63,270 nt of DNA from Styela clava (Eukaryota), in NCBI RefSeq assembly GCF_964204865.1, contig NW_027556749.1, forward strand, positions 124,001-187,270. The letters run 5' to 3'. The notes beneath the pieces were generated by a model that ran no database searches, had not been told where the DNA came from, and saw only the letters and a list, made by a program, of their open reading frames with translations. Position numbers and translations under genes: made by a program. This document shows, piece after piece, positions 12,676 through 32,191 of this stretch (its first letter is position 1; every line of letters starts with the position of its first letter).

Positions 12676-13988
12676 CTAAGATCCACCAATGTCATAAATT
12701 GTTTTACCTGCTGGTAATTTAATACCATACAAGAATTTTTGACATAATCCCTTTCATTTAGAGATTCCATACAAAGCTTTCAACCCTGTAACAATATTAC
12801 CTGTTTGTGGAATTATAGCTGATCACACATAAGGTGCCCCCGCTAATACCATAACTGGTGAATTTTTTTCAGGCGAAATGTATTGTAAGATCGCAATATA
12901 TTGAGATAAGTCTGCTCCTAAATCTCCAGTAATTGCTGTACTATATGTTGGCATATAAACTGCGTTAGCTGGTGACGAAGGAATAGTAGCTAATCCTGTG
13001 TTTGCGTCTAGTGGAAGGGTGTCTGCAGCCGAAGTACTTGTAACTTCTGAAAGACTGTTAGCAATTTCAGTATAAGTAGCTCCAGGTTTTCCTTTAGGTC
13101 AGATTTTACCTAAAAGGATTGATACTTCAGCTTTCAAACCTCCAATTTTCAAGTTATTATCCTCGAATTCTTGATAGTTGCTTGTATCTAATCCAACTTT
13201 GGCGTTTACGATAGCTAATAAATTTTTGATGTGGGGTGCTACAATCAAAACTAAATTAGTTCCCACTTTACCATAAAGACTTGTACGTGTTTTCAATGAT
13301 TGAATCATGTTTAAGAATTTATGAAGGAAAGTGATTCCCGCAAAACGTGAGTCAGCATTTGTGGCTGCAATATCTTCGTCTGTAAGTTGTAAAACGTTAC
13401 TTTTAGCTTCTGAATCAGTTTCAAGAGCTTCGATAACTGCTTTAAAGTAATGAAGATTAACACGATTTTTATAATTACTTCATCTTTGTGCCAAAAGAGC
13501 AGAATAGACGAATCCACTATGTAAAAATAATGATTTGTCTAATTGTTCCATAGGATTGAATTCAAAGTGCGAAAATGTCATTCCAATAGTTTTTTTATCC
13601 ACTCCTGGATATGTTGGATTGACAGGTGCTGTTGAATTGAACCCATTAGAAAGAGCTAATTGGTGTGAATATGATGAAGTTCCATGCCCAGATGCTAAAA
13701 CTCATGTTTTTTGGAGAGTTCCATTTTGATCTCTGTGCATGTTAACAATCCCTAATTTGAAAATTGTGTCATAATCAATATTTGGAATTGTTGGGATTTG
13801 AGATAAATTGATTGATTGAACAATTTCATTACCTTTAAATGAATATAGAATAACGAATGATTTGTATCGGTAGATTCCGCTGCAATTAATTGTGATTCTG
13901 TTAATGTTTGCCCTGGAATTCCTTCAATAGCAGATTTAGTAGTCGCATTGATAGTTCCAAAAGCTTGGTCTTGACTTAGTGTTGCCAT
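12676..13988 (-). pseudogene. Major capsid protein, frameshifted in this copy
   Basis: Lacks CCTT at 13840/13841 relative to the intact copy at 59016..60332. Confidence 0.75.
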
Positions 13989-14015: not shown

Positions 14016-14624
14016 TTATTTGTTGCTCAAGTCATCATCAATAATAATACCAGTTTGGGGATCTACTCTACGAGTAGCTTGTCTTATATATTCATTAACG
14101 GGTTGGTTTAAATTTGTCACATTAGGCACATTAGGTGTCTTTTGTGTCATGTCCCCATTATAATTAGTAGTTGGGAGCGGTTCAGCCTTTTGAACAAATA
14201 AAGAACTTAATTCGGTTTTTAAAACTTTAAACTCGTTAATCAAATCTTTGTCTTCTAACTGAGCAGATTTATTGCCTAATAAGGTCAAAACATGTTTCAT
14301 TTTAGATTCATCGCCACCTTCTTTCTTAAATAATTCCTTAATGTGGTTATGTCTTAATGATGTTTGAGCTTGTATGAACTTCCCTTCAAGATCCTTATGA
14401 GCGAGCTCTCTATTTTTCAAATTTTCGCCAAGAGTGTTTTTGATTTTCTCTAAGTTTGAAATTTGGTCGACAGCTTTTTCATATTGTTTCTTCAAAGTAT
14501 CATACTTTTTTTCTCACATATTAAACTCAGCTACACTTACTTTAGTGTCTTTGTCTGTACTTGTGCTTTTCTCAGTATTTTGCACTTCTTGTGTTTCCAC
14601 AGTTTCTTTTATGTTATTTTCCAT
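14016..14624 (-). CDS. Capsid scaffolding protein (202 aa)
   Basis: AGGAG RBS; charged coiled coil with a Pro/Asn-rich tail; immediately upstream of the capsid gene. Confidence 0.75.
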
Positions 14625-14709
14625 AAATTTCTCCTATTATATAATAAGAAGGGATCTTAAAGTTGATGACGATAAGGAGGTACTAGTCGAAATAAACTTT
14701 ATACCCCTT

Positions 14710-14758
14710 CATATATATATATGTACAAAAACACTAAAAAAGATTTAATTATTTTTAA
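14710..14758 (-). promoter_or_regulatory. 49-bp putative late promoter (identical to 27295..27343)
   Basis: Exact reverse complement of 27295..27343; lies 85 bp upstream of the scaffold ATG. Confidence 0.7.
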
Positions 14759-14852
14759 TTATTTTGAATTATTTTTAAAAACATCGAGTTTTACGTCTGA
14801 GAGCGCGAGAATAAAAAATCTTACTATAAGTTGAGGCTGTGACAAATTGAGT

Positions 14853-15008
14853 TACCCTAGGACCCTAAAAAAAGCTTGGGATATCCTCGGGCTTGACTTT
14901 CTCGCGTTCTTGTGATATAATAAAAGGGGGTACCCTAGGACCCTAAAAAAAGCTTGGGATATCCTCGGGCTTGACTTTCTCGCGTTCTTGTGATATAATA
15001 AAAGGGGG
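14853..15008 (+). repeat. Tandem duplication of a 78-bp unit, each containing a sigma70 promoter
   Basis: Units start at 14853 and 14931; TTGACT-17bp-TATAAT at 14893..14921 and 14971..14999. The second genome copy has a single unit. Confidence 0.92.
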
Positions 15009-15051
15009 TACCTTTTCACGTTCTCGATCGTTGAGATAAAAAAAAAAGTAC

Positions 15052-15080
15052 TTGACAAAATAAAAATTTTAATATATAAT
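15052..15080 (+). promoter_or_regulatory. Consensus sigma70 promoter
   Basis: TTGACA-17bp-TATAAT exact match. Confidence 0.8.
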
Positions 15081-15258
15081 AAACGGGGAGCCTTTCGCCG
15101 GCACAATTCGCACGATTGAACACGTTAAAAATGGGCTTGCTTTTTCTTCTTTTAATACTAAACCACGTTTAAACTCGTTTAGGCCCTCAAATGGCAATTA
15201 TTTGAATATTTCAGCGCTACGACTGACACAATCCGCAAGCTTTCAGATTTCAACAGGC

Positions 15259-15291
15259 AAAAAAAAGACCGGGAACATCTAAGCCCCGGCC
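15259..15291 (-). terminator. Intrinsic terminator after the 102-aa gene
   Basis: GGCCGGG...CCCGGTC stem followed by T8 on the minus strand. Confidence 0.75.
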
Positions 15292-15316
15292 CTAAATAAT
15301 ATTTATTTATTTATTA

Positions 15317-15625
15317 TTATTTATTATTTGCACCCTCCTTTTTCATCTTTGCCAAAATCAACCGGATTTTTAAAAATTCAATTTCTTTTTTGGCCTGTAA
15401 TTCTTTCGCCTCAAAATAATTTAAAAATTTTTTTATAATTTCGATTAAGTCGACCGGCTCCATTTCGAAGCTTGCCAAATTGTTTAAATTATTTATAATT
15501 AAATTATTTATAATTTTTTTGGCGTTGTCTGTTTCAAATGTAATTTTTTCGAGATTTTCGAAATCGTTTTTGTTGTCAAGTGTCGAGAAAATGGCCAATA
15601 ATTTATTTTTTTGCTTTATTTCCAT
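15317..15625 (-). CDS. Hypothetical protein (102 aa)
   Basis: AGGAGG RBS; TAATG overlap with the upstream gene. Confidence 0.75.
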   Translation of the reverse strand: MEIKQKNKLLAIFSTLDNKNDFENLEKITFETDNAKKIINNLIINNLNNLASFEMEPVDLIEIIKKFLNYFEAKELQAKKEIEFLKIRLILAKMKKEGANNK

Positions 15626-16314
15626 TATTCTGCACCTCCTTCGTCACGTTCGAAATCTTCAAGCATTCGTGCCAAGTTGATTTTATCCGCTAAATCGTTT
15701 TGCGTCTCGTCGTCCTGCGTCTTGTTCTCTTCAGATGTTGCGAGGTCGTGGGATTCTTCGCGTATACTTTGCGCGGTAATTCCGCAACTTCTCAAAATTA
15801 AATCTTTTCACGTCGCGAAATCTTCAGGCTTCAAGTCTTCGGCTTGAGTGTATCCATTTAACGCGTTCCAAATCTCCCCATCTTCTACCTCGTCGCTGTC
15901 GGTGAACAGGTCGCGCGCTCTATCCTCCACATCTTCGGTGCAGTAATGTGCCCAATTTAATTTATCATTTAAACCAGTAAAGGAGTTACAAAATTTAATT
16001 TGTTCTTTTTTCTCTTCTTCTGCTTCTTTTGCTTCCTCTTCTTCTTCGGCCTCTCTTTCGTCTTCGTCGTTGTTATTTGGTCAAATAATCACGTATTGCG
16101 CCAATTCTACACGGTCCGCGTCGCAGTCTTCACGTGCTCCGCTTGTGCATTGGTGGCGGTTATAATTAATTTTTTTTAATAATCGGTTTTTTTCGTCCTT
16201 TATGTCTTGATTATCGAAACAGTCCGCCAAAAAATTATCGATTTTTTTTTTGCTTAAATCCGTACATTTTACGACTTCAAAGCGTCCAAGTCTATTTTTT
16301 TTTGTGTGTGTCAT
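15625..16314 (-). CDS. Highly acidic hypothetical protein (229 aa)
   Basis: GAGGAGG RBS; open in code 4; D/E-rich C-terminal two thirds. Confidence 0.8.
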
Positions 16315-16583
16315 TGTGGCACCTCCTCAATATTATAATAATAATTAAATATATATTAATTAATTAATGCATTTATCTTTTACGTTTCAATTTAATTATA
16401 TATTATTATTTTTTTTTTTGTTATTTTTTTTTTTACTTATTTTTTTTTTAAAATTTTTGCATTATACCACAAACGACAAAAAAGGGGTAAAGTGTTAAAA
16501 TAATATTATAGAAATTAAAAAATTGATTTTTGAAAATTTAAAATAAAAATTAAATAAAAAATTGCCAAAAGCTCGCCCAATTA

Positions 16584-16612
16584 ATTTTAACATAGTTTTT
16601 TTTTTTTGTCAA
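16584..16612 (-). promoter_or_regulatory. sigma70 promoter for the leftward two-gene operon
   Basis: TTGACA-17bp-TAAAAT with a TG extension on the minus strand. Confidence 0.65.
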
Positions 16613-16792
16613 GTTTTTTTTTAAAAATTTTGAAATTTATTTTTAGACGAAATAAAAAATTTGAAAGAGAAAAAAATTTTTTTATTATTCTCTATGTAAG
16701 GACTTATTTTTTTGAAAAGCTTGATTATCTTACTGACAGAAAAAAAGGTGATTTTTGCATATGGGACCGTGGGTTAGACTGGAAGAGGTGAA

Positions 16793-17050
16793 TTTTTTTG
16801 AGCTAAAACTTTTACAACTTTTCCGGGCTGAAAAACACGAGTTTTACCTGTCGTAGAACCAATACAGAAAAAAAGTAAAATATTTGCAAACTCTTATGAA
16901 AAACAAAAAATATTATACTATTATTACTTATTTATTTTTTTTTTTAAGCAGTAGTAGAGATAAATTTACTTTTTTAACGAAATGGCTTAAACACTGGGTA
17001 AAGTAGACTTTTCGAGGCCGGAAAAGTTATAGAAATTTTGACTAAAAAAA
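16793..17050. repeat. Imperfect ~42-bp inverted repeat
   Basis: 16793..16834 is complementary to 17009..17050 (core AACTTTTCCGG/CCGGAAAAGTT). Confidence 0.65.
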
Positions 17051-17175
17051 ATTGAGCTAATTTTTAGTAAGATTTAGAACACTCAGTAAGATTTTGACGA
17101 CTCGCAGGCGTAGAACGACAAAAACACACTGGCGAAATTTGGAATTTTTTGGAGGTCACAGTAAGGTATCGAATA

Positions 17176-17317
17176 TGATATAATAATAATAGAGAAAAGG
17201 AAATAAAAGAATGGAATTACATACATTAAAGAATTGTAAAGCAAAAGAACAAAATGCTATTTGCTTATATTGTTTTGTTAAAAAAAATAGAAAGACAAAA
17301 TAAAAGTATGATATAAT
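17176..17317 (+). promoter_or_regulatory. Two extended -10 early promoters
   Basis: TGATATAAT at 17176 and 17309; the same motif recurs at 18786, 18811, 22196 and 22506. Confidence 0.6.
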
Positions 17318-17345
17318 AAATATAATAGAAAAGGAGAAAAGAAAA

Positions 17346-17729
17346 ATGGAAATAGAAAAATACCACAAATTATTAGATGAAAGAAAAGAAAAGATTGGTA
17401 AAATATTTGAAAAGATTGGTAAAGAAGCAAATAAGTTCAATGATAAAGTAGAATTTACAGGAATTACAATTAACGATTCAAGTGTGTCAAATTCAACATA
17501 TTACACATTTAATTATCAAAATAAAGAAGACGATTGTTTGGAATTGAATTTTAAAGTTAAAGTTTCAGATCATGACAAGCATTTCGGAAATGAATTTAAA
17601 TTTATTTTTGAAAAATTTACAAGTGAAGAAGAAAATGAATATTGATTTGAAACATTCGATTTTAATTATTGAAATGATAAAAATTTAATTGCTTGTTTAA
17701 AAGAATTTTTGGAAGAAGAATATTATTAA
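17346..17729 (+). CDS. Hypothetical early protein (127 aa)
   Basis: AAGGAG RBS; code-4 frame. Confidence 0.75.
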
Positions 17730-17747
17730 AAAAAAAGGAGAAAAATT

Positions 17748-17960
17748 ATGAAAACAGAAACAAAAAACAAAATGTGAGGAAATGATTATCTTTTCTTAGA
17801 ATGTTCAATTTGAATTAAAGACGAACATTTAAAAGATATTGATTTTACAAAAGAAATTGGACCAAATGACGACGATAATAATGATGCTTATGATGATTAT
17901 GATATCGACGCTGATGAATATTACCACGACGACAACAATTGACCGCGTGAAGATTTTTAA
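17748..17960 (+). CDS. Small acidic protein (70 aa)
   Basis: AAGGAG RBS; Asp-rich C-terminal half. Confidence 0.7.
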
Positions 17961-17977
17961 ATAAAGGAGAAAAAATT

Positions 17978-18427
17978 ATGATTACTACACAAAAAGAAAC
18001 AGCAAGACAACGTTTTAATGCTATTTTGAATAAAATTGACAATTCAGAATATATATATGACATAGATGAAGAAGTTAATTATCTTGATGATATGGGGGCG
18101 GGATCACAATTTTATTTTAGAAAGAATTTAAATAAATTGTTTAAAGAATTAAATTATAAAGATATGGAAGAAACTTATTTTAAAATAATGAGCAAAAACA
18201 AAGATTGAGCGCAAATTAAATTATATTTAGATGATGACGTAAATTTACAAGATGAAAAGATTTTTGACAATTTCAAGAAACAAACATACGATTTTTTTAA
18301 ACACATCCAACGAATGATTGACGAAATTTTGAAAGATGATTTGATAAAGTTTAAAGCATATTGTGCGAAAGATATGGAGCGAAGTTTACCCATTATTAAA
18401 GGATATTTAAAAAATAATTGAGTATAA
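17978..18427 (+). CDS. Hypothetical protein (149 aa)
   Basis: AAGGAG RBS; code-4 frame. Confidence 0.75.
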
Positions 18428-18439
18428 AAGGAGAAAATT

Positions 18440-18781
18440 ATGAAAAAAAATACAATTGATTTAATTTTTAAGTTAGTAGGGATTATTAGCGAAGAAAAAG
18501 GTAAAGGGAAAGGTGAAAAAATTTTGGCGAAAAATATTTTGAAACATTTTGAAAGCGATATTAGTGTTAAATGTTTTAATGATCGTTGAAATTCGTTTAA
18601 AGATCGGCGTCGGGAAATTTTAGAAGTAAATTTGAAACAATTTAAATTATCTACATTAATATTGATTAAACATAGTTTAATTGGTGAAACTAAAAACAGT
18701 TGTAAGATCCAAAAAAACAAAGATATAGTTGTTTATTATAATAAATTGTTTTACAAAGGTTGTGATGCCAACCTGGGTTAG
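18440..18781 (+). CDS. Hypothetical basic protein (113 aa)
   Basis: AAGGAG RBS; code-4 frame. Confidence 0.7.
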
Positions 18782-18850
18782 GATATGATATAATAAAATA
18801 AAGTTGAATATGATATAATAAAAATAGAAGAAAACAAAGGAGAAAAAAAA

Positions 18851-19243
18851 ATGAATAATTGAAGATTAAAGATTATTAAAGAGTTTAAAGAATATTTGGA
18901 AGCTAAAGAAGCTAACCGATTAACACCTGAAGAGAAAACAATTGCTTCAGATTTTTTAAACATAATGGGAAGTTTTAGCCGTTCAACCGACTTTGACAAT
19001 TTCGAATTTAAAGGACGCGACGGGTTAAATTATTACGAAGAAATGGCGTTTGCACACTTTAGAAATTGAGAAAATGACAAAATTAATTTTAAAAAAATAA
19101 CATTTAAAACAAATAAACATTTTTTAGATTGAATTTTAAGTATCAATAAATTTAAGTTGAGTCGACTAAAAACAACAATTTCGAGACTTGAAGAAATGAA
19201 AAAAAAAGAGGTTTATCGTGATAAAAAAGGAGGTAAAAAATAA
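18851..19243 (+). CDS. Hypothetical protein (130 aa)
   Basis: AAGGAG RBS; preceded by two TGATATAAT motifs. Confidence 0.7.
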
Positions 19244-19244
19244 T

Positions 19245-19538
19245 ATGAAAAATAAATTAGAATATGAAAGTTATTTATCAAACGCAAAATCTTTAATAAG
19301 AAATGATAAATTAAGCGTTAAAGATTTGGAAAAATCATTCAAAGTTGTAAGTAATAATATACTAAAATTAAAAAGTGAAATTTTAAAAAATGTAGTAAAA
19401 GGCGAAAGCGTTTGAGTTGATAATCATAATAAAGAAAACTATGAAAGTATATTAAAAGCTATCGAGTACTGCCTTTACAATTATAATTTAATTAAAGAAG
19501 GAGAAGATAAAGAATATGATGAACAAGAAACTAGTTAA
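19245..19538 (+). CDS. Paralog-family small protein (97 aa)
   Basis: AGGAGGT RBS; C-terminal KAIEYCLYNYNLIK motif. Confidence 0.75.
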
Positions 19539-19725
19539 TTTTTTAGCAATAGTTGTTACAATGATATATTGCTCACATTTGATTTGCTCAGTTGTAGTAC
19601 TAACAACAATTGAGACTTTACCAAGTTGATTAGCTTTATTACCACTGTTAAATCCAACACTAGCTTTAGCAGTTTTTTCATTTTTTGATAAAATTGGATG
19701 ATTAGGAGGAGAAAATAATGAATAA
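19516..19725 (+). CDS. Small membrane protein (69 aa)
   Basis: AAGGAG RBS; two hydrophobic segments. Confidence 0.6.
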
Positions 19726-20023
19726 ATTAAAATTTTTTCTAAAAAACATAGTTGATTTTTTACTTATATTTATGGTTGTAGCGTCAATATTATTTATATT
19801 AGCATCAAATTATATTACTTATTTTGGGTGACTTAATAATATTGGTGTGTTGAAAGTTAAGAAACTTATTACAATCTATATATTATTAATTATAATATTA
19901 AGTATTGGAACACCAATTGTTTTATATTTTAGTGTAGAGTCAATTAACATACAATATAAAATTATAAAATATTTGTGAAAATTTAAAAAGGAGAAAAATA
20001 ATAATGACAAAAGAACAAATTAA
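19718..20023 (+). CDS. Small membrane protein (101 aa)
   Basis: AGGAGGAG RBS; two hydrophobic segments. Confidence 0.6.
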
Positions 20024-20333
20024 AGAAATAAAAAAAGATGTCGATAATTTAAAACATCTTGACGTTCCAAGAGCGATACGTCAAAATATGCCAGAAGAAT
20101 TGAAAGATATTTGACGTTGTGAAAAATTTGACGATTTGACAGATGAAGACATAAAAGAAATACATAATGCCGTTGTGACAACTGTAGACTCATGAATAGA
20201 ATTAACGCAAGAGGCCCAAAATTCTAGTGGAGGCTTCAGCTCAGACGTTAAGATGTTTACATCGTACCGCGAAGACTTAGAAGATTTTAACGAAAAGTGA
20301 GAAAATAAAGGAGAAGGAACACAATGAATATAG
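20004..20333 (+). CDS. Hypothetical protein (109 aa)
   Basis: AAGGAG RBS; code-4 frame. Confidence 0.7.
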
Positions 20334-20767
20334 ATTTAAAAGATACAATTGAAACTTTAATTAATAATACTATCGAAAAAAATTTTGGAAAAGACAGAGC
20401 TTTAGAAAAGGGTATTAGAGAAAACGAAGCAGGAGTTGTTGATTTCTGAAATTGTTTTGGTCGAACAGCATTACATGTAATAGTTCACGAAGAAAAAAGC
20501 GGAAGGTTACATATACGAATTCCAGATACGGGAGACAAATTGACGCAATGTATTTTTATTAAACAAAATAAAAAAGGTTGAAAAAAATTAGAAGATCATA
20601 TTATGTTATCACTGAATTATCAAAGAAAAAAATTAAAAGAACACATTGAAGAAACTCATAAAAAGATAGCGCGTTTACATGAATTAGACAACCAACGAAG
20701 AAAAGATATTGAGGCGTTTTATAAAAAATGGTTTGTACTTGAGGAGAAAACAATACATGATGAATAA
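20324..20767 (+). CDS. Hypothetical protein (147 aa)
   Basis: RBS present; code-4 frame. Confidence 0.7.
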
Positions 20768-21665
20768 ATTAGATAAATATTATACAAAACAAAAAATAGC
20801 TAATAAGTTAACAACATATATATATGCGGTTTTAAAATATTATAAAATTGATTATAACAATTTAACATGAATTGAACCTAGCGCCGGCGAAGGAGTGTTT
20901 GTTGACGCTTTAGAACAAGTATTAGACATAAAACCTAAAATTCTGTGCTATGATATTGATGAAGATTTAAAGAACAAAAGAGTCATTAAACAAGACTTTT
21001 TAAAGGTTAATCTAAAGCATTCGGCGAAAAATATAATTTTTGGAAATCCACCATTTGGTCGATCTGGACAGTTAGCAATTGACTTTATCAATAAGGCTTC
21101 AAAAATTGCTGATATTGTTTGTTTTATAGTACCTAATACTTTGCGACGATATTCAACTCAAAAAAAATTAAATAACGACCTAAAATTGATTGTAGAATTA
21201 ACTGTTGATCAAAATGCTTTCGAGTATAAAAACAAAACAAAAAATTTCAATTGCTCATTTCAAATTTGAGTCAATAAAAATCGAGAAGAATTTAAAGACG
21301 GAAAAAATTTGAGATTATTAGAAAAACAACCGTTTCGAGTTCCTTCTGTAAAGACGTTTATTTACAATAACACAAAAAAGACTGTCAAATTTTTTGATAA
21401 GGCTAAATACAAGTGGGACGTGGGTATACCTCGACAAGGTTTTTGCGACTACTCAAAATTAATTACAGATCAAAAAGAGTTAAAGACAACTCAACAGTAT
21501 ATGTTTATTAAATATAATGATGAGTTAGCAAAAAAAGTTGTTGAGTTAATAGATTTTGAAGAACTGTCACATAGTAATACAATTGTACCAGGTTTTTCGA
21601 CAACAGATTTTATAAAAGAATATAATGAGATCAGGAAATTACAAGGAGGTCATAATTATGAATAA
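20757..21665 (+). CDS. N6-adenine DNA methyltransferase (302 aa), orphan
   Basis: DKYYT, motif I EPSAGEG and motif IV NPPF; the two track ORFs join across TGA (FQIW). Confidence 0.88.
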
Positions 21666-22203
21666 AACACCCATAATTTGCGTTTTTTTAGGTAATGATT
21701 CAAAAGAGTTATCAAATACTAGACATAATATTGGTTGACTTTTTTGCGATTTTATGGCTTTAATAACGGAAAATACATTTATTGAAAAAAAACATTATTA
21801 TTACTTTAAAGATTACATTTGTACTGGTATTAGTCCAGTTTATTTTATTAAATTGAAAACACTAATGAATGATTCAGGAAAGATTTTGAGAAAAATTTGT
21901 CAAAAACAAAAATGAAATTATGATCAATTAATTATTTTTGCCGATAATACGGATTTAAAACTAACAAAATTTAAAATAAAAAATCATATATGTAATAATG
22001 GTCATCGTGGAACACACGACATAGTTGAACAATTCAAAACTAATAAAATTAAAATGTTTTACTTAGGAATAGATAGACAGAAAAATTTAAAACAATGAGT
22101 GTTGTCTCAATTTGAGGATAAAGAAATTTTGTTTTTGAACAAATATATTTTTCCGAAACTTTGAAATAAATTTGAAGAAAGTTTAAAGTTGAATATGATA
22201 TAA
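21658..22203 (+). CDS. pth: Peptidyl-tRNA hydrolase (181 aa)
   Basis: LGN..TRHNIG, KTLMNDSG, DNTDL, GHRG, LGIDR and VLSQF in canonical Pth order and length. Confidence 0.88.
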
Positions 22204-22218
22204 TAAATATATATAGAA

Positions 22219-22542
22219 ATGAGAAACGAAATTAAAAAAAGTATATTGATATTTTTATTTATAGTAAATGTTATTTTTAGTATTATTTTGATTAAAAGTA
22301 ATTTAGAATTAAATAATGATAAGTCAAACTTAGAAACTAAATTAGTAGAATTAGATAATGAGAAGACAAAACTAAACGGAATTATTAGATCTCAAGAAGA
22401 TTTAAAAATAATTATTGGGAATCAAGAAGAAGAATTAGAAAGATTAAGAACACTTACTAGACTTCAAGAAACAAACCTAATTAAATTAGAAAACAAAAAT
22501 AAATGTGATATAATAAATATATGGAAAGTTATGAAAATTTAA
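22219..22542 (+). CDS. Membrane-anchored coiled-coil protein (107 aa)
   Basis: N-terminal hydrophobic helix followed by heptad repeats. Confidence 0.6.
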   Translation: MRNEIKKSILIFLFIVNVIFSIILIKSNLELNNDKSNLETKLVELDNEKTKLNGIIRSQEDLKIIIGNQEEELERLRTLTRLQETNLIKLENKNKCDIINIWKVMKI

Positions 22543-22575
22543 AAAACAAGAAGAAAAAAAGGAGAAAAAAGAATA

Positions 22576-22782
22576 ATGAAAACATATAAAATTTGAATGA
22601 AAGATAAAAAAGAGTTGGATAAATTGGAAAGTATACTATGAGATTTAAAAATTGAATATGATGCTAGAACTAGTATTGAAAGTACAATATTATCACCAAA
22701 AGGGGACAAAGACAATACTATTTGAGATAAAAAAGGTTTTTATGTAACAATTAAAACGTTTGAAAAAGGAGGAAAAGAATAA
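22576..22782 (+). CDS. Hypothetical protein (68 aa)
   Basis: AAGGAG RBS; code-4 frame. Confidence 0.65.
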
Positions 22783-23537
22783 TGAATAATTTTTCGGATG
22801 GAAATGGAAAATATAAAAAAATATCTAGTGACGAATTAAAACAATTAGAAAAAAAAATGGAAAATACACTTATTAGTGCTGTTGAAAAAATGAATTGCGG
22901 TGTGGTTTATTGTGATTGAATGAGATGGGATGAGTCACCACATGAACCTTTGAGAGGTCGTTTTGTCGTCACTATTGAGTCTATGGGTCATAGATTTGAC
23001 TTTGTAAACTTTAATATTCATATTTTAGAAAAAAAACCTAGACGATGATATCATTTAGAAGATAGTGATAATGACAAAATCGAAGTTTATTTAATACTTG
23101 AGGATTTTGAAAAATTAGATGATTATCTTGAAGAATTTAAAAAAACTATTAGAAAAGAAATGCGTTCAATTATACGAGCTAAAAATTGAAACCAATTGTA
23201 TAGTTATAATTTTGAAAATATTCGTATTAAAAAAGTTTGAGAAATTGGAAAAAAATATTTTGGTGATAATGATTTGACAAATACTTACCTCGAAGGTAAA
23301 GTTTCACGTCGCGCTTTCAACAAATATCGAAAAGCACTTATTAAAATAGTAAACACAAGACTTTCAAATTGAAAAAAAGGCGATGACCCTAAAATATTTA
23401 TTGGCGTATATGCTATTTTAGATTGAGAAAAAGAAAACGTTGAAAAAATAAAGACAATTAATAGAATTAGAAAAGAAATTGCTAATCAAAAATTTACGAA
23501 AAAAAGAGGATCGTATAAATATAAAGGAGAAGAATAA
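22782..23537 (+). CDS. Hypothetical protein (251 aa)
   Basis: AGGAGG RBS; TAATG coupling; code-4 frame. Confidence 0.7.
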
Positions 23538-24475
23538 TGACAAATAAAGAAAAAGGAAAAAAAATTAAAGAAATGACAGAAAAACAAAGAGAACGCGAAA
23601 GATGAAAATTATTTTTACGAAAATATATTTGATTATCAAATCATAAAGACATAAAATATCATAGTAATTTGACAAATCGAATTTTAAATTGTAAACATAT
23701 TAAAAAAGATGAAGACAAAAATAAAGTAATAGATGTTATAAATGGAGAACTTAAAATGTCTGATATCGAACATGATTTGTTTCTTTTATTAAGAGATGAA
23801 ATATTTTTTGATTTAATTAATGTTATTAGAGATAATAATAAAATTGAAGAAGATAAAACAAAAGAACGGAAAAGATTAGAAGTAGTAAAATTACTAAAAC
23901 GTTTTAAACAATATGAATGATCATGAATTACTATGAAAAACATGGAAGCTTTAGCAGAAGAAGTAAACAGACAAAATAATTATGATAAAGATAAATTAGT
24001 TACTTTAAATGACAGATTTTATGATAAAGATGTTCATGGTAGCGAAACATCAGATGATACTACTCTTTTTTATTTTTTAATTGGAAAAAAAGATGAAGAT
24101 TATAAATATGCGACAGATGTTTCAATTTGTGTTTATAGAGGAGGTGATATTAAAGTTAAATATCCCGACATCACAAACTTTACAGAATATGATGACGATG
24201 GACATAAAACTATGTATTGTAAAGTAGCAACTTATTTTGATATCCATAACGATTGAGATGATATTATTGATAAAATTAAAAAAACTATAACATATTTAGA
24301 AATAAGAGACAAAGAAGAAATTGAAGAAGCTGAAAAAAAAGAAGCTGATAAATGAAGAGCATTACGAAAAAAAGAGGAAAAGAAAGAGCTTGAAGCAAAA
24401 AGAAAAGAGATGGAAGCAAAAATATTAAAGGATATAGCAAAAAAAGCTAAGAAAAAAGCAAATGACAAAATGTAA
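23537..24475 (+). CDS. Hypothetical protein (312 aa)
   Basis: AAGGAG RBS; joins two track ORFs across TGA. Confidence 0.7.
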
Positions 24476-24569
24476 TTATTGTATTAAAGAACCTAAAGGC
24501 ACATACTGTTTAGAGTGTTTTTTAAAGAACGAAAAAGAGCGTAAAAAAAATGTTAAAAAAAGAAATTAA
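24462..24569 (+). CDS. Tiny CxxC-CxxC peptide (35 aa)
   Basis: CNYC...CLEC; bridges the gap between the neighbouring genes. Confidence 0.4.
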   Translation: MTKCNYCIKEPKGTYCLECFLKNEKERKKNVKKRN

Positions 24570-25209
24570 AAAATTTTGAGATTTAAATAAAATATTGGCG
24601 AAAATTGGCAATGTCGAAAATGTTACTGTAAGCCCTAAACTTGACGGAGTTGGGGCTTACTATGATAAAACATCTAACAGTTTAGTTATATGTCGATCCT
24701 CGGCTAGAGTGACAACATTTTCTATAAAAAAAGATGATAGAGTTGAAGGCTTTGGCGAATTAGTTTTAAATAAAGAGTTTGGAAATCGGCGTGATGTTGT
24801 AGGTCTTATTAATAGAAAGTTTTATGATAAACGCCACGACTTGTTAGAATTTATTAACTACAAAAGAGTTGAAAAAATAATTAAATTGAAAGATTTGAAA
24901 AAGTATATTGAACAACAGAAAAATATTGATTTTTACACTGATGGTGTGATTATTGAACGTAAATATGCGTTTAAATTCGAAGGACCTAAAAGTTGTGGAA
25001 CAATAGATAAAATAACAAAACAAATTGGCAAAAAAACGGGCAAAATTTCTTATATTGCTTGATTAAAACAAAGTATTAAATTGAATGAAATTACTGTCAA
25101 GAAAGTTAATTTGTCAACTAATAAAAGTAAATATAAAGTGGGTGACCATGTCGTTATTGAATTAAAAGGACAAACGGTTCCTATCATAATAAAAAAGGAG
25201 AATATATAA
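24550..25209 (+). CDS. Minimal NAD-dependent-type DNA ligase (219 aa)
   Basis: KLDG, GE, DGVII and AFKF motifs; OB-fold segments QIGKKTGKIS and VGDHVVIELKGQTVP. Confidence 0.75.
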
Positions 25210-25210
25210 T

Positions 25211-25834
25211 ATGAATAAATTTATAGTAGTTGAAGGTATTGATTATTCAGGTAAATCAACCTACATAGAAAAATTGAAAAAAAAATATAAGAAAGAAGGA
25301 AAAAGTGTTTATGTGACGCGAGAGCCACGAGGAATTAGTTTTGGCGAATTATTAGCTAAAGAAGTCTTTTTTAATGACAACCTCAAAATTAGTTCGATCA
25401 CAAAAGCAATTTTGTTTATTAGTGTCGGTTGAGAATTATATAATAAAGTATTGGCTAAAAAGTTTAAGAAGTATGATATTGTGATTTGTGATAGGTATAT
25501 ATTTAGTACGTTTGCTTATCAAGTATTTGGAGGTGATAAAACAATTAATCAAAATCAATTATTGACAATGTACACTTACGCGATGCCAAAAAATTATTTA
25601 CCTCACGAAGTACACTGAGTAGATTGTTCGACTGCCGAAATTTTAAGACGAGTAAAAATTAGATTACCAGCTAATAATTACGACGCAAAATGTTTAAAGA
25701 AAAGTTATGTTAATAAGATTAGAAAAGCCTACAAAGAAACTTTTGAGTTTTTTACGTATAACACTATCTATTTTAAAAAACGTATCGAATGAAACGTTAT
25801 TGTGTTTGAAAAGGATGACAAAATTAATGAATAA
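25211..25834 (+). CDS. tmk: Thymidylate kinase (207 aa)
   Basis: FIVVEGIDYSGKST, TREP and DRYIFSTFAYQ. Confidence 0.92.
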
Positions 25835-26402
25835 TATTTTTAAGAGTTTGGCGCAAATGCGCGATTTGAATATGTATGAAACAGATGAGTTGAAATTGAT
25901 GCCTATCAATGAGGCAAAAAAATTAAACAAAACTATTATTGTTTTAAATTACAAATTATTTTATAATGACAAAAAAGCTTATGCTGTCGTTTTGAAGAAC
26001 ACGAACAAGTTTAAATATTTTGAAAGTAACAGTTGGGGCGAAAAAAAATTTTTTGCTAAAAAAACCTTTGTAAAGAACAATAATTTAAAAATCAAGTTTA
26101 ATTGTCTTGACGGTGATTATGGATTTGTAGCGATTGACACGGTGGGTTCGAAAGCCCACTTTGTTAATTGAAATGAAATTTTAGATAGTCAAGTCCATAA
26201 AAAACAAATATATAAAATTAGATTTAGTATTAACTATAATTTTTCAATAGATTTTTTAAACGATTCTTGACGAAAATTTCGAGCAACACATTCTAATCTA
26301 TATTTTAAAAATTTTAGAAACGAAGTTGATAGATATATAATAAATTTAAAGTTTGTAAGAACATTTATAAATAACATAAAAGGAGTAAAAGAAGATGTTT
26401 AA
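25827..26402 (+). CDS. Hypothetical protein (191 aa)
   Basis: Code-4 frame coupled to tmk. Confidence 0.65.
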
Positions 26403-26781
26403 AAATAATAAAGAAAATAATGATTTAGGGGTATATAGTGATGATATTGATATTATGTTAGAAGTTGCCAATGAAGTATTTTGTAGAACAGTATCGTTAA
26501 GTTGAAGTACATGACAAAAAGTTCATGGTTATCAGAGTGCTACCTTAGTAAAACATTCATCAAAAATGAATACGTCTAAATTGTTAAATACTCGACGAAC
26601 TATTTTGACATGTAAAGCAATTTGATCACTATCGAAAAATATTTTAAAATTGGAAGATAATGATAAAAATAGAATAAAATGTTATAGAGAAGGGTTACGT
26701 TTTTATGTTACAGTGTGACCACCTACTATGTCATGATATCGAGAATTTAAAGGATTTTTAAAGAAATGAAAAAAAAAATAG
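26395..26781 (+). CDS. Hypothetical protein (128 aa)
   Basis: AAGGAG RBS; code-4 frame. Confidence 0.6.
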
Positions 26782-27308
26782 ATATATTATATAATAAGTA
26801 TGTTGAAACAAAAGACAAAAAAATTCTAAATAGAATCAAATATGAGATGATGGATATAGCAAAAAAAACATGTAAAGTTGTTTCACATATAAAAACAAAA
26901 GGTTATAGTGATCCAAAAACAATGTACAGTTTCTGTTTTGAACGGTTTGATAAAATAATAAACGATTATGAACCTACACATAAAACAACGTTGAGTACAT
27001 ATACTGCTATTTGTCTTTGAAATTATTTAAGAAGTAGACAATATCATAAAAGTTTAGACATTACAAAATCTAGAATTTATACAACACGATCATTAGATAC
27101 TTTTAATAATGACAAATTAAAGTTAGATTTAAAGAGTATTTTAGGCGATACTTTTGATTATAAATTAATATGTGACTATATTGGACTCAATGGAAAGAAA
27201 TTAAAAAATAAAGAATTAGCTAAAATATATAATAAACCTTTAGGTTCTATAAAAACAAGACTACGAACTATTGAAAAGGAACTTAGAAAATATTTTAAAA
27301 ATAATTAA
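26766..27308 (+). CDS. RNA polymerase sigma70-family factor (180 aa)
   Basis: Region-2-like DKIINDYEPTHKTTLSTYTAICLWNYL; region-4 HTH IGLNGKKLKNKELAKIYNKPLGSIKTRLRTIEKELRK. Confidence 0.78.
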
Positions 27309-27343
27309 ATCTTTTTTAGTGTTTTTGTACATATATATATATG
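27295..27343 (+). promoter_or_regulatory. 49-bp putative late promoter upstream of the tRNA array
   Basis: Identical to 14710..14758 in inverted orientation; overlaps the sigma stop codon. Confidence 0.7.
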
Positions 27344-27550
27344 GAGGGTCTCAAAAAACCTCTAGTCCTAAATACATAAAATTTAAGAGTAACAAACTCC
27401 GCCTTGTTACTAAATTAACTTTTTGACTTTAAACTGTTAGACACGGGTGCGTCTTTAACCACACTACAGTTTGAAAAGGTACTATAACCTTTTAGTCAAG
27501 TCGTGACTTAAACCGACTTAACTACCTCTGTTAACGCGGAGGTGGTTTTT
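27343..27550 (+). ncRNA. Structured leader/ncRNA ending in a terminator-like hairpin
   Basis: Several stems: AGTAACAA/TTGTTACT, AAACTGT/ACAGTTT, AAAAGGT/ACCTTTT, TTGACT/AGTCAA, AAGTCG/CGACTT and ACTACCTCTG/CGGAGGTGGT followed by a T run. Confidence 0.5.
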
Positions 27551-27626
27551 GGGCCTGTAGCTCAATAGGGAGAGCATTTGGTTTGCAATCAAAAGGCAGT
27601 CAGTTCGAATCTGGCCAGGTCCACCA
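27551..27626 (+). tRNA. tRNA-Ala(TGC)
   Basis: Cloverleaf, G3:U70, encoded CCA. Confidence 0.92.
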
Positions 27627-27630
27627 TAAT

Positions 27631-27707
27631 AGAGTGTTAGCTCAGCAAGTAAGAGCGCCTGTATTACAAGCAGGAGGTCAGTGGTTCAAGCCCACTACAC
27701 TCTACCA
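27631..27707 (+). tRNA. tRNA-Val(TAC)
   Basis: Cloverleaf; anticodon loop ATTACAA; CCA. Confidence 0.9.
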
Positions 27708-27713
27708 TTTTTT

Positions 27714-27790
27714 GCTGGTTTAGCTTAATTTGGCAAAGCACCCGTCTTGTAAACGGACGAGTAAAGGTTCGAGGCCTTTAACCAGCACCA
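27714..27790 (+). tRNA. tRNA-Thr(TGT)
   Basis: Cloverleaf; loop CTTGTAA; CCA. Confidence 0.9.
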
Positions 27791-27793
27791 TAT

Positions 27794-27869
27794 AGAGCTA
27801 TAGCTTAGTGGTTACAGCGCACGCCCTATAAGCGTGAGATCTTGGGTTCGATCCCCAATAGCTCTACCA
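27794..27869 (+). tRNA. tRNA-Ile(TAT)
   Basis: CACGC/GCGTG stem; loop CCTATAA; Ile-like body; CCA. Confidence 0.85.
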
Positions 27870-27872
27870 TTT

Positions 27873-27948
27873 GGATCTGTGGTGTAATGGATAACATGCC
27901 TCTCTGTCTAAGAGAAGATAGCGAGTTCGATTCTCGTCAGGTCCGCCA
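27873..27948 (+). tRNA. tRNA-Asp(GTC)
   Basis: Loop CTGTCTA; G73; CCA. Confidence 0.82.
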
Positions 27949-27949
27949 C

Positions 27950-28035
27950 GGAGGAGTAGCGAAGTGGTTAAACGCGTCTGACTGTAAATCAGATTCTTTT
28001 TAGATACGGGAGTTCGAATCTCTTTTCCTCCACCA
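27950..28035 (+). tRNA. tRNA-Tyr(GTA)
   Basis: Loop CTGTAAA; long variable arm; CCA. Confidence 0.92.
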
Positions 28036-28039
28036 TTAT

Positions 28040-28115
28040 CGGAAAGTAGCTTAGATGGAAAAGCACTCGGTTTGGGTCCGAGAGATCATAGGTTCAAATC
28101 CTCTCTTTCCGACCA
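28040..28115 (+). tRNA. tRNA-Pro(TGG)
   Basis: C1:G72; loop TTTGGGT; CCA. Confidence 0.92.
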
Positions 28116-28119
28116 TTTT

Positions 28120-28210
28120 GGAGCGATACCCAAGCTGGTTTAAGGGGACTCATTGCTAATGAGTTAGGTTAGTTTCTGACGCATGGGTTCGAATCCCATT
28201 TGCTCCGCCA
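28120..28210 (+). tRNA. tRNA-Ser(GCT)
   Basis: Loop TTGCTAA; long variable arm; G73; CCA. Confidence 0.92.
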
Positions 28211-28211
28211 C

Positions 28212-28288
28212 GCCCGATTAGCTCAGTTGGTTAGAGCGATTGCCCGTTAAGCAAGAGGTCACAAGTTCGAATCCTGTATTGGGCGCCA
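28212..28288 (+). tRNA. tRNA-Asn(GTT)
   Basis: Loop CCGTTAA; G73; CCA. Confidence 0.88.
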
Positions 28289-28289
28289 C

Positions 28290-28365
28290 GCCTTGTTAAC
28301 TCAAACGGTAGAGTAGTTGCCTTTTAAGCAAACGGTTAAAGGTTCGAGTCCTTTACGAGGCACCA
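28290..28365 (+). tRNA. tRNA-Lys(TTT)
   Basis: Loop CTTTTAA; CCA. Confidence 0.9.
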
Positions 28366-28370
28366 TTTTT

Positions 28371-28447
28371 GCCCACGTAGCTCAATTGATCAGAGTAAGG
28401 GTGTTCTAAGCCCTAGGTTGAAGGTTTGAATCCTTCCGTGGGTACCA
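28371..28447 (+). tRNA. tRNA-Arg(TCT)
   Basis: AGGGT/GCCCT stem; loop GTTCTAA; CCA. Confidence 0.87.
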
Positions 28448-28582
28448 TTTTATTTATCTGGTCCAAAAATCCAAGGACCAGCTCTACAGACTCAAGGCTA
28501 GTCAAAGGTAGCACTATATTAGTGTAAGCCTAGTTTGCCACCACTGTCTCTACAGACCATTTTGACATGTGGTAAACGTTTC

Positions 28583-28656
28583 GCAGATGTAGTTTAGTGG
28601 TAGAACCTCAGATTTCCAATCTGATTGCGGGAGTTCAATTCTCCCCATCTGCTCCA
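28583..28656 (+). tRNA. tRNA-Gly(TCC)
   Basis: Loop TTTCCAA; U73; CCA. Confidence 0.92.
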
Positions 28657-28659
28657 ATA

Positions 28660-29060
28660 TTTCAATGTCATTTTTGACATTTTCAGGAACAACGACGTCT
28701 ATAACGTCAGATTCCAAATGTGCCGAGCATCACAATTTAAACTGCTCATTATTTGAGGTGATCAAAATGAAAACGATATGCGTCAAAAGAAACATGACTC
28801 AAAGTGAAAAACTTTTAGTTTTAAGACAGAAGAGGCTAGTTTTAATATCACAAATAAAACACGTCAAACTTCTTTTTTTCTTATGTTTGTTTGTAATAAT
28901 CATACCTTACTATTTATATGTAAAGTGTTATCGAAACGTGAAAATTATAAACAAAATAAAAAAAATTAATACTAAAATAGTAGAGCGAGGTGGGTACGAA
29001 ACTAGCGTACAAAAATTATATAATCCTCATACTACGAAAATCCCTTGAAAAAGTCATAGT
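28660..29060 (+). ncRNA. Candidate ~400-nt structured ncRNA
   Basis: Nested helices (ATGACT/AGTCAT, TTTTAGT/ACTAAAA, TTTGTTTGTAAT/ATTATAAACAAA, GTAG-GAGG/CCTC-CTAC, GTACG/CGTAC); no gene with a convincing RBS. Confidence 0.4.
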
Positions 29061-29158
29061 TAAATAATAATATTACTATGGACAGAGAAAAAAAGAAAAA
29101 GAAGATTGAAGACGAAAATGATATCGCTGATGTTGTTATTGTTTCAGTTTTTATATAA

Positions 29159-29458
29159 ATGACAAATGAAGAAAAACGAATGTATGATTGATACATTTGA
29201 TCAGTTTCAACAATGATACAAAAAAATATGATTGATTTAAGAACTCTAAAAAATCAAGTAAAAGAGTTAAGATATATGTTAATGGCTGATTTTGAAGGAC
29301 CACCTCCACATTGAGAGTCTGAATATGTGAATCCACGATATTTCACAATCTTAGAAATTGTAAAAAAGAAAGAAGAGGCTATGCAGTATGGTGTTGATAA
29401 TTACGACAAAATAAAACAAGGTAAAAAAATGAAAGAAAAATGAGATGACAACAGATAA
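29159..29458 (+). CDS. Paralog-family small protein (99 aa)
   Basis: EAMQYGVDNYDKIK motif; N-terminus similar to the 30646 gene. Confidence 0.7.
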
Positions 29459-29482
29459 GATTACATCTTAGGAGAAAAAAAT

Positions 29483-29797
29483 ATGTTATATAGAATAGAA
29501 AAATATGATATGATTCATAGAGATTGAGCAAAACACGCAACATCACAAATATATAATGATTATGTTAAATATTGTGAAATATTAATAGAAAAAGATGACT
29601 TACAATTAGAAGATCTTAAAGAATCATTAGATTTAGTTAAATACTCTATATTGAATTTGACAGAAACAATTTTAAAATGTATAAAAGAAGGGCAATCAAT
29701 TATGCCACACAACAGTCTTTTAGAACATAAAATTGAAATTAAAACAGCTTTAGAATATTGTATTAAAAATTTTAATAATATTAAGGAGGTTTGATAA
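29483..29797 (+). CDS. Paralog-family small protein (104 aa)
   Basis: AGGAG RBS; TALEYCIKNFNNIK. Confidence 0.75.
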
Positions 29798-29799
29798 TA

Positions 29800-30003
29800 A
29801 TGTTGACAGATGCGCAAGCTAAAGAAGACATGAAGTTTTTAACAGAAAAAGGAAAAGTGGAGTTACTCACCATTAAACATTGAGTAGAAGAAAAAGATTT
29901 TAAGTTAAAAAAATTGTTACAATTATCACTTAGAGTTGAAGAAACAAATAAAGCAATAAAATATTGTATTAAAAATTATAATAAAATAAAGGAGAAAAAA
30001 TAA
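29800..30003 (+). CDS. Paralog-family small protein (67 aa)
   Basis: AAGGAGGT RBS; KAIKYCIKNYNKIK. Confidence 0.72.
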
Positions 30004-30656
30004 TGAAAACAACAAATGAAAAATTAATAGGAACTATAATGACATTACTAATAGAAGAAGATGGGCTAAGTTGAACTAAACAGTTAACAGACAAACAAAT
30101 TGATTTAATCAAAAAATATATACCACAATATGATCCAAAAAAAATATACAAACAATTTGATACTTTTGTATATAAAGATGTAGTTTGTGTTGTAGAAACA
30201 TATGATCTAGGTTATATGTGAGCGTATCCTTTACTAAAGAATAGCGCTGAAAAATATAGTAGCGCAGGTGATGGAACATTAATTAAACTTTATGATGAGT
30301 ATGATTCAACATTACCAAAACCTTTTAACAAACTAGATGCTAATTTAAATTTGGAATATATGAATTCGATTTATAACTGAATTGGAGATGGCGCACCTGA
30401 ATCTTTAAAATTTAAATATATTAACACAAAAAAAACATTTAAAAAGTTAGATACTATACATGAAAGTCATAAAATTTTAGGTGTGGCATTTAGTAAAGTA
30501 ATCGACGTTTATTTGAAACCAATTTTAGAACGTATTGAAAAACTTGAAAAAAAAGTAGAAGATTTACCAACACGTGCCGTAATTGGAGACTGCTTATATC
30601 CAATAGGTAAACGTATTGAAAAACTCGAAGACAAGGTTAAGAATAATGACAAATAA
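30003..30656 (+). CDS. Stand-alone copy of fibre repeat module A (217 aa)
   Basis: WTKQLTDKQIDLI...YKQFDTFVY...PLLKN...YDSTLPKPFNKLDANLNLEYMNSIYNWI matches the modules of 3551..12007. Confidence 0.8.
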
Positions 30657-30915
30657 TGATATATATAAAAAATTTATCAAACATGTTTCAGTATTAGTGA
30701 TAAATAATTTAATTAATTTAGAAAATTTAAAAGATATGTTGACTATAACAAAAAATGAAATATTAGAACGTTCAGAAGAAATTATTAAAAAGATGTACCG
30801 CAGAGAATGAGGAGAAATAACTTTCAACGAAGAAATACAATTAGAATGTATTATGATTAAAAAAGCATTGGAACATTGTATCAAAAATTTCGATAAAATC
30901 AAAGGAGAAAAATAA
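30646..30915 (+). CDS. Paralog-family small protein (89 aa)
   Basis: KALEHCIKNFDKIK. Confidence 0.75.
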
Positions 30916-31283
30916 TGATTAGAGATTGAGAATGAGAATATAGCGAAAGAGAAAAATATTTAGAAAAAAATAGAAGATTTGTATTATCAAGTAATGATAG
31001 ATTTTATAATAGTAACGATGAATCAGATTATAGAATTATAGAAGACTTGATAATATATGAAATATATAATAAACATATGACTATTAAAGATCTTAAAAAA
31101 TTATTTTATGAATATAGCACGCGAGAGTTTGAAGAAAAAAGAAACCATTTTAAAAAATTTCAAATTACATCATTAGAAAGTGTACGACAAATAGGTATAA
31201 TTACTCGACATTGTGAAGCTATGAAGAATTTATTAAGTTTTCATATTATTAAACAAGAAGAAAAAAAGGAGAAAAAAGAATAA
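30915..31283 (+). CDS. Hypothetical protein (122 aa)
   Basis: AAGGAG RBS; TAATG coupling. Confidence 0.7.
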
Positions 31284-31588: not shown

Positions 31589-31589
31589 A

Positions 31590-32189: not shown

Positions 32190-32191
32190 AA

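Follow-up and report, generated by a model that had tools for sequence, protein, structure and literature searches.

The DNA considered here is a stretch of 63,270 nucleotides, hereafter the window, that was assembled with the genome of Styela clava (NCBI RefSeq assembly GCF_964204865.1, contig NW_027556749.1, positions 124,001 to 187,270 of the forward strand). It holds 1.37 copies of a 46,340-bp phage unit, which we call phage A and which is found in tandem on three contigs of the 377-Mb assembly. Our subject is a 49-bp element that occurs twice in this unit, each copy at the head of a long run of genes and one of them overlapping the end of a gene for a 180 amino acid (aa) sigma-like protein. 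The genes of phage A are fragmented under translation table 11 and tile both strands under table 4, and in the 45 genes counted TGA is used 211 times and TGG 9 times. In alignments with a co-assembled phage, phage C, the TGA codons of phage A stand opposite TGA (25), F (10), Y (3), or W (1) and never opposite G, which rules out code 25 and supports code 4, with TGA read as Trp. The proteins recognised with Pfam and PHROGs include a terminase, DNA polymerase, primase, exonuclease, resolvase, thymidine kinase (TK), TMK, and peptidyl-tRNA hydrolase. On the strength of the terminase, the replication genes, and the code, phage A is by its gene content a terminase-encoding phage of a code-4 bacterium, and we infer a tailed phage with a Mollicute host. 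The assembly yielded no host chromosome; it gave no sigma region 4 and has polymerase genes solely on large, eukaryote-sized contigs.

The unit has three parts: a 12.5-kb early region, which ends with the sigma-like gene (26766..27308, plus strand, with one TGA read as Trp), a 21.7-kb minus-strand arm to its left, and a 12-kb plus-strand arm to its right. The left arm (from 14624 to 1, then from 46340 to 39380) carries the virion and packaging genes, from a putative head scaffold (14016..14624) to the terminase large subunit (39380..40861; phrog_2, E 6e-25). The initial annotation had named scaffold and capsid genes at its head. The scaffold stands as a weak Pfam assignment (Phage_scaffold, E 0.0047, below cut-off), and the putative major capsid protein (354 aa, 12676..13740, minus strand) is proposed from position and size, as no head or capsid match was returned by Pfam, PHROGs, or NCBIfam. 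The right arm begins with a cluster of RNA genes and continues at 28665..39379 with small open reading frames (ORFs), TK, a PD-(D/E)XK exonuclease, the resolvase, the DNA polymerase, and the primase, the largest gap being 95 nt. The left copy of the element (14710..14758, minus strand) and the right copy (27295..27343, plus strand) point outward from the early region, inverted and 12.5 kb apart. A further occurrence at 61054..61102 (minus strand) is not a third site: it belongs to the following unit of the 46.3-kb concatemer, where it repeats the left copy.

As had been reported for the window, the 49 nt of the right copy are the exact reverse complement of the left, with no identity beyond either edge, and both copies run on as [AG]AGGG (AAGGG on the left and GAGGG on the right). 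The first 14 nt of the right copy lie inside the sigma-like ORF and so overlap its stop, once TGA is read as Trp. The repeat is real and far above chance: in 20 of 20 order-3 Markov versions of the unit the longest exact repeat was 17 to 23 nt, and the only other exact repeats of at least 40 nt in the unit are a 78-bp tandem duplication and a repeat in Gln/Pro coding sequence. Short-read unitigs of runs X1, X2, and X4, which belong to one study and perhaps to the source sample, stop and resume at 27324/27314 and at 14739/14729, exactly as a 49-bp repeat predicts, so the element is no long-read artefact. Across the 377-Mb assembly the core pattern of the element has 26 matches, all on contigs of phage A or of its sister phage B, and the reversed control has none; 13 of the 26 lie at the 13 sigma gene stops. 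We found no weaker third site in the unit, the next-best site agreeing at 22 of the 34 positions that the elements of phages A and B have in common.

The element lacks TTGACA and TATAAT, as first noted, and its 3' half lacks even TAnnnT. As a sigma-A promoter it failed, with TAnnnT solely at element position 23 in phage A and at positions 14 and 25 in phage B, and it was not among the strong host-type promoter sites of our scans. The SigK -10 consensus is CATA-n3-TA, and a resemblance to it had been proposed. Neither that pattern nor CATA-n3-T occurs in the element of either phage, where CATA alone is present.

Host-type promoters are a feature of the early region. Those with TTGACA/T-17-TATAAT or TGnTATAAT span 14893..22514 on the plus strand, and on the coding strand the early region has eight TGnTATAAT sites and each arm has one, which amounts to 8 in 12.5 kb versus 2 in 33.7 kb (p 0.002, with a duplicated site counted once). 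Both stray sites lie inside genes, the right one at the very end of its arm. A looser sigma-70 scan found 169 sites versus 90 expected at 13.5-30 kb and a weaker enrichment, 91 versus 76, at 27.3-40.5 kb. Because the right arm has no gap above 95 nt after the RNA cluster, the right copy of the element is the sole distinctive promoter candidate for the replication genes, barring read-through from early promoters; no terminator was found between the sigma-like gene and the right element. Two details of the early promoters are recorded here for their own sake. At 14893-15320 three strong host-type promoters, one a perfect TTGACA-17-TATAAT, are aimed into a stretch without a long plus-strand ORF, back to back with the left element and facing a minus-strand unit (16314-15317); they possibly make a small or antisense RNA. 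At 14844-14999 a TTGACT-17-TGnTATAAT promoter is duplicated in tandem (78 bp) in this genome copy alone. It is single in the next unit, in the other assembled copies, and in the unitigs of X2 and X4, and the duplication is likely a minor variant or an assembly artefact.

The most informative comparison is with phage B (contigs C318 and C216), which is mostly 80-95% identical to phage A in DNA over the aligned blocks. The initial annotation had suggested scanning relatives for the paired motif, and phage B has two copies at the same two sites, identical to each other over 56 nt. Aligned in register, the elements of the two phages are unlike at 15 of 49 positions, and every difference is common to both copies. 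A and B both carry TTAAAAATAA before a 17-bp block and TTTTTGTACATATA after it, followed by TA or AC and a shared TATATG; the block reads TTAAATCTTTTTTAGTG in A and ATGTAACGTAAAAGTAC in B and holds 13 of the 15 differences. At the left site the element is more diverged than its surroundings (15/49 versus 30/190 in the flanks, p 0.024). The same 15 changes at places 12 kb apart would be hard to get by independent drift, and copying between the sites is the simplest account. We also compared the host-type promoters of phage A with one another. In 27 of 28 pairs they share exactly 11-24 nt, the 28th pair being the tandem duplication, so the identity over 49-56 nt exceeds what shared recognition needs. 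The duplication of the element that had been suspected is thus borne out, and the concerted difference between A and B suggests that it is ongoing.

Evidence that the 180-aa protein is a sigma factor comes chiefly from profiles. The protein of phage A has no match in Pfam or PHROGs, and a word-indexed protein search returned nothing. In contrast, a profile of the A and B proteins run against 1.84 billion proteins gave one match, a protein that we label P0003 (E 3.7e-4), which carries Sigma70_r2 and Sigma70_r4 over cut-off and is closest to the SigK/SigE models of NCBIfam, below their cut-offs. By hhalign the phage protein aligns to P0003 with a probability of 96.6% over 136 columns from residue 43, and residues 129-178 match P0003. 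A region 4 helix-turn-helix at the C-terminus is seen with Sigma70_r4 in phage B (E 0.0019, below cut-off) and in the predicted model, where helices 148-154 and 159-179 have a predicted local distance difference test (pLDDT) score of about 80-90. Region 2 (2.2-2.4), in the N-terminal half, is seen through the P0003 alignment and through TIGR02937, which spans residues 60-176 of the B protein (E 1.7e-6); the phage protein has no direct Pfam region 2 match. In NCBIfam all 4 matches of the A protein and all 12 of the B protein are sigma models, none over cut-off; the phage protein falls far below cut-off with the SigE models and has no SigK match. Foldseek with a single-sequence model returned sigma entries in all of its top 10, none at E <= 0.001, and with a model built with P0003 it placed a sigma first, two entries reaching E <= 0.001. 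We therefore call the protein, on these sequence comparisons, a divergent sigma-70 factor with regions 2 and 4, predicted to bind core polymerase and to initiate transcription, and the earlier identification of the gene before the right copy as a sigma holds, at scores below curated cut-offs.

The sigma proteins of A and B are 67% identical, versus 93-99% for TK, TMK, ligase, exonuclease, polymerase, primase, terminase, and portal, and the differences are unevenly placed. Segments 29-51, 69-111, and 138-172 are 39-51% identical, with nonsynonymous divergence (dN) about equal to synonymous divergence (dS), versus 92-94% identity in segments 1-28, 52-68, and 112-137. In the P0003 alignment the 2.3-2.4 stretch and the region 4 helix-turn-helix with its recognition helix fall within the variable segments, and the conserved segments are, as we take it from sigma-70 structures and that alignment, the core-binding helices. 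The changes between A and B thus cluster where sigma-70 proteins are expected to touch DNA. In extracytoplasmic function (ECF) sigmas the region 2.3 loop sets -10 specificity (PMC8103513).

The start of transcription can be placed provisionally from the leaders. The 85-nt left leader (14625..14709, minus strand) is predicted to fold into a stem from +2 and a hairpin partly over the ribosome-binding site; it is kept in phage B and contains TATAAT. All four leaders (left and right, A and B) have a predicted stem at +1 or +2, with z scores of -2.4 and -2.8 on the left and weaker ones, -1.7 and -1.0, on the right. As the predicted stems open at +1 or +2, we place the start where the identity of the A copies ends, at 14709 on the left and 27344 on the right. 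Consensus folds of the two sequences had two-sided compensatory change in 0 of 19 and 0 of 33 pairs, and so the leader and RNA structures are to be read as predictions. With +1 at the purine after the element, the variable block would lie at -39..-23, CATA at -14..-11, and TATATA or TATAAC at -12..-7, without the T that sigma-A promoters have at -7.

Taken together, these observations point to the element being the promoter of the phage's own sigma, in a two-step cascade with the two copies kept identical by copying, a reading to which we give a probability of roughly 60%. Host sigma-A would transcribe the 12.5-kb early region, with the phage sigma gene at its end. That sigma would then fire the two outward copies, the left one driving the 21.7-kb virion and packaging arm and the right one the RNA cluster and the replication arm, which may also be read through from early promoters. 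The right copy thereby sets a limit to the term late regulon used at first: with replication genes behind this copy, the pair is better described as post-early than as purely late. Within the element, the A-tract at -49..-40 would be UP-like, the block at -39..-23 would be phage-specific and hold the -35 hexamer, and the conserved T-run with CATATA-NN-TATATG would be the melting region. Identity would be restored when one copy is copied onto the other by gene conversion or a double crossover, with the copy fused to the sigma stop as the likely donor, so that a new sigma allele would bring its matching promoter; selection for the changed sigma would explain why such a copy is kept. As expected of a phage-sigma promoter, the element stands upstream of the non-early units and co-occurs with the sigma gene, and both are absent from phage C.

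Several points weigh against this reading. Solely two phages carry the element, both from one assembly, and no relative was confirmed in public collections of annotated phages, viral, metagenome, and genome contigs, and proteins (queried with the terminase, the element pattern, the polymerase alignment, the sigma, the terminase alignment, and the peptidyl-tRNA hydrolase), in short-word searches that probably missed proteins split under table 11. The sigma assignment lies below every curated cut-off, with TIGR02937 at 27.8 bits for B and 14.6 bits for A versus a cut-off of 42.9; the alignment behind the better structural model included a sigma, P0003; and VIA-align gave its best Z, 7.6, to an unrelated non-sigma helical bundle, with sigma region 4 at Z 6-7. 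The segment boundaries in the sigma were set after viewing the alignment. The TATAAT of the left leader, conserved and just before the ribosome-binding site, is a possible host sigma-A promoter. The divergence of the sigma may also be plain mosaicism. The 128-aa gene upstream of the sigma is equally diverged (70%, dS 0.59), two structural genes are as diverged or more (49% and 66%), and for 4 of the 36 genes tried no A/B ortholog was found. Finally, caution is advised by a repeat-based prediction that failed before, the motif predicted for phage 7-11 in PMC4331800 differing from the consensus mapped in PMC8948821.

Among other explanations, a dimeric regulator could use the element, with its palindrome CATATA-N2-TATATG, as an operator, or the element could be a host sigma-A promoter that depends on an activator, with the sigma-like protein incidental or a plain DNA-binder. 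In both phages the two variable bases of the 3' half are exactly central in this 6+2+6 inverted repeat, T-12 and A-11 match sigma-A under our numbering, and in phage C, which has no sigma homolog, a sigma-A-like -10 box stands before these two units. However, a TA-rich melting region is easily palindromic, no other regulator family was found among the 38 phage proteins scanned, the protein aligns to a sigma over regions 2 and 4, and the concerted change of the 17-bp block would go unexplained, all of which makes this explanation unlikely. Alternatively, the element could be the same phage-sigma promoter with the copies agreeing through selection alone, each having tracked the sigma independently over an unusually long read-out. 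The changes do gather in the predicted -35 zone while the helix-turn-helix of the sigma changed, and long perfect promoter repeats have a precedent in the two 43-bp repeats of phage Xp10 (PMC4331800). Selection would, however, need the same 15 substitutions twice, spacer positions included, and the Xp10 repeats hold a confirmed promoter of about 20 bp (PMC4331800), which itself points to duplication; we regard this explanation as quite unlikely.

The contents of the RNA cluster bear on a third explanation, the one favoured by the initial annotation, in which a strictly late regulon pairs the virion genes with a dedicated tRNA supply. Behind the right copy lie a structured non-coding stretch (27344..27519; short stem at +1, kept in phage B, no Rfam family at gathering score), a terminator-like hairpin with a U run before tRNA-Ala (27520..27550), 11 tRNA genes (Ala, Val, Thr, Ile-UAU, Asp, Tyr, Pro, Ser-GCU, Asn, Lys, and Arg; 27551..28447), and a structured spacer with tRNA-Gly(UCC) (28448..28656, both kept in phage B), all on the plus strand. 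The hairpin (-23.1 kcal/mol for 27495-27560, z -3.1) is absent from B and was not among the calls of the consensus scan. The count of 12 tRNAs is thereby confirmed, and nothing but tRNA reached the Rfam gathering score in 27250-28800. Phage B keeps both copies of the element, the structured stretch after the right one, and the spacer before tRNA-Gly; the block of 11 tRNAs is absent, and across 12 loci covering more than a whole unit tRNA-Gly is the only tRNA. A dedicated supply is not what keeps the element in phage B, which retains both copies with 1 tRNA of 12, and the proposed comparison of late-gene codons with the anticodons gave a weak match. The 12 tRNAs can read 0.611 of the codons in the virion arm versus 0.594 in the early genes (p 0.10) and 0.575 in the right arm (p 0.0006), and the share of exactly matching codons is lower in virion than in early genes (0.267 versus 0.301, p 0.0005). 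A set-level test, one of several, favoured the idea (p 0.03), as Ala, Pro, and Thr are among the four decoding groups with the strongest enrichment in virion genes, and in Listeria phage CKA15 the phage tRNAs increase together with the head and tail genes (PMC12282133).

Phage C, with the same genome plan and a terminase 32% identical to that of A, adds to both sides. It has 7 tRNAs behind a transfer-messenger RNA (tmRNA)-like gene (38.1 bits versus a gathering score of 47) and a tRNA-His in its structural leader, and the sigma-A-like box AGTATA[AC]TAT stands at both of its corresponding sites and nowhere else in the unit, the motif having been derived from those two sites. It has no element and no sigma homolog (best E 0.18 in 1681 segments). 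These boxes and the tRNA-His speak for a link between virion genes and tRNAs, and the pairing of virion operon and RNA cluster may be common to the family and have arisen in two ways, a hint only. With the right copy heading replication genes, the terminator-like hairpin before the 11-tRNA block, and the lack of most tRNAs in B, a strictly late tRNA regulon is very unlikely. Rather, the tRNAs behind the promoter are variable cargo, at most slightly biased towards virion proteins. Elsewhere, early promoters precede the tRNA genes in T4-like phages (PMC1524935), and in phage K the tRNAs lie downstream of abundant non-coding RNAs (PMC11598898). Least likely of all is a recombination, inversion, replication, or packaging site, at which a crossover would flip the 12.5-kb early region: the inverted orientation, the symmetric core with a variable central dinucleotide, the concerted evolution, and the phage exonuclease and resolvase would suit it, but all 13 right and 13 left assembled copies with seen flanks are in one arrangement (in consensus contigs, not molecules), no site-specific recombinase family was matched, and the copies stand exactly at the heads of two promoter-poor arms, their identity ending where the predicted leaders start.

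Returning to a phage-sigma promoter kept uniform by copying, we can tentatively go one step further, although the odds are against it: the sigma gene with the promoter fused to its stop might be a transferable specificity cassette, making the sister phages orthogonal after the early stage. If so, whenever a phage acquired or evolved a new sigma allele, the promoter adjoining it would be copied to the head of the virion operon, and sister phages sharing a host population would neither switch on nor be switched on by each other. The diverged sigma patch may have come by exchange and not by stepwise selection, which fits a cassette without proving adaptation. The two phages offer a natural experiment, with two sigmas 67% identical and each with a candidate two-site regulon changed in step, which suggests that the switch and its targets evolve together. 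Phage sigma switches are known; here a minimal one would be found in a Mollicute-type phage with no relatives in the searched collections. In mycoplasma-type cells, where alternative sigmas are few (PMC5138195), such orthogonal pairs, if real, could serve as compact expression switches. In a literature search of partial coverage we found neither a Mollicute phage sigma nor phage promoters described as changing in concert.

Several further observations concern the RNA genes and the neighbouring phages. The tRNA-Ile (27794-27869) has the anticodon UAU, which reads AUA directly; phage C has this tRNA too. In the place of the 11 tRNAs of A, phage B has a tRNA-shaped element (L011, 4250-4318) with an acceptor-like stem, a T-loop-like end, and a short anticodon loop, which folds at z -2.6 and was not called by ARAGORN or Rfam. 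The structured stretches kept in A and B without an Rfam family are 27360-27519, of which phage B repeats one hairpin unit, and 28448-28582 (z -3.5). Phage C (L024 2059-3294 and 7721-8009; L023 4061-4360) encodes a truncated alanyl-tRNA synthetase (Pfam, E 5e-76), the tmRNA-like gene, and the structural leader of about 370 nt that holds the tRNA-His; phage A has the peptidyl-tRNA hydrolase instead. A 333-aa protein of phage C encoded before the RNA cluster was considered as a relative of the sigma or of a 303-aa protein and resembles neither. The 2818-aa repetitive structural protein (3551-12007 in A, L022 2394-9899 in C) is 74% identical between A and C over 2271 residues, versus 32% for the terminase and 26% for the portal, pointing to recent exchange of that gene. 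The ORF between scaffold and capsid is 78 aa in the first unit (13752-14015) and 96 aa in the second (60042-60332); the first unit is there 4 bases shorter than the second unit and three short-read runs, probably through an assembly error. In all, at least four terminase-bearing elements of code 4 were co-assembled with the eukaryote genome (G000), namely phages A, B, and C and a small element on C221 whose terminase matches are separated by 11.9 kb, the contigs involved being C347, C90, C72, C318, C216, C154, C98, C221, and others.

Among known systems, the SigK/SigE models are those with which P0003 scores best, below their cut-offs, and CATA-n3-T(A) is absent from the element. The alternative sigmas described for Mollicutes are partial, lineage-specific sigma-70 homologs, and regulation by one of them is reported for M. 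genitalium (PMC5138195). By description, these are chromosomal and often have the -35 domain only (PMC5138195), whereas the phage sigma here would have both domains. Phage Xp10 is similar in that phage promoters lie within two perfect repeats longer than 40 bp, and differs in using a single-subunit phage RNA polymerase and in carrying both repeats in one intergenic region (PMC4331800). Here, in contrast, the copies are inverted and 12.5 kb apart, and no phage polymerase family was found among the scanned proteins. Phage SPO1, with gp28 for middle and gp34 for late genes, provides a cascade from host sigma-A to phage sigmas in a low-GC host, in which an early-expressed phage sigma turns on the next gene class (bioRxiv 10.1101/2021.11.12.468384), as proposed here, where one sigma appears to cover both arms of a 46-kb genome. 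PHROGs gave the sigma-like protein no match. The closest parallel is with phages 7-11 (SaPh711_gp47) and phiEco32 (gp36), in which a phage sigma-70-like subunit works on the host core and early genes use the host sigma, and in whose relatives the promoters stay at similar genome positions as the consensus shifts along with the sigma (PMC8948821), a pattern also seen between phages A and B. Those phages have 6-8 promoters with a short consensus and sigmas 15% identical (PMC8948821), whereas here two candidate promoters are identical over 49-56 bp and have changed together, the sigmas are 67% identical, and one of the promoters is fused to the stop of the sigma gene.

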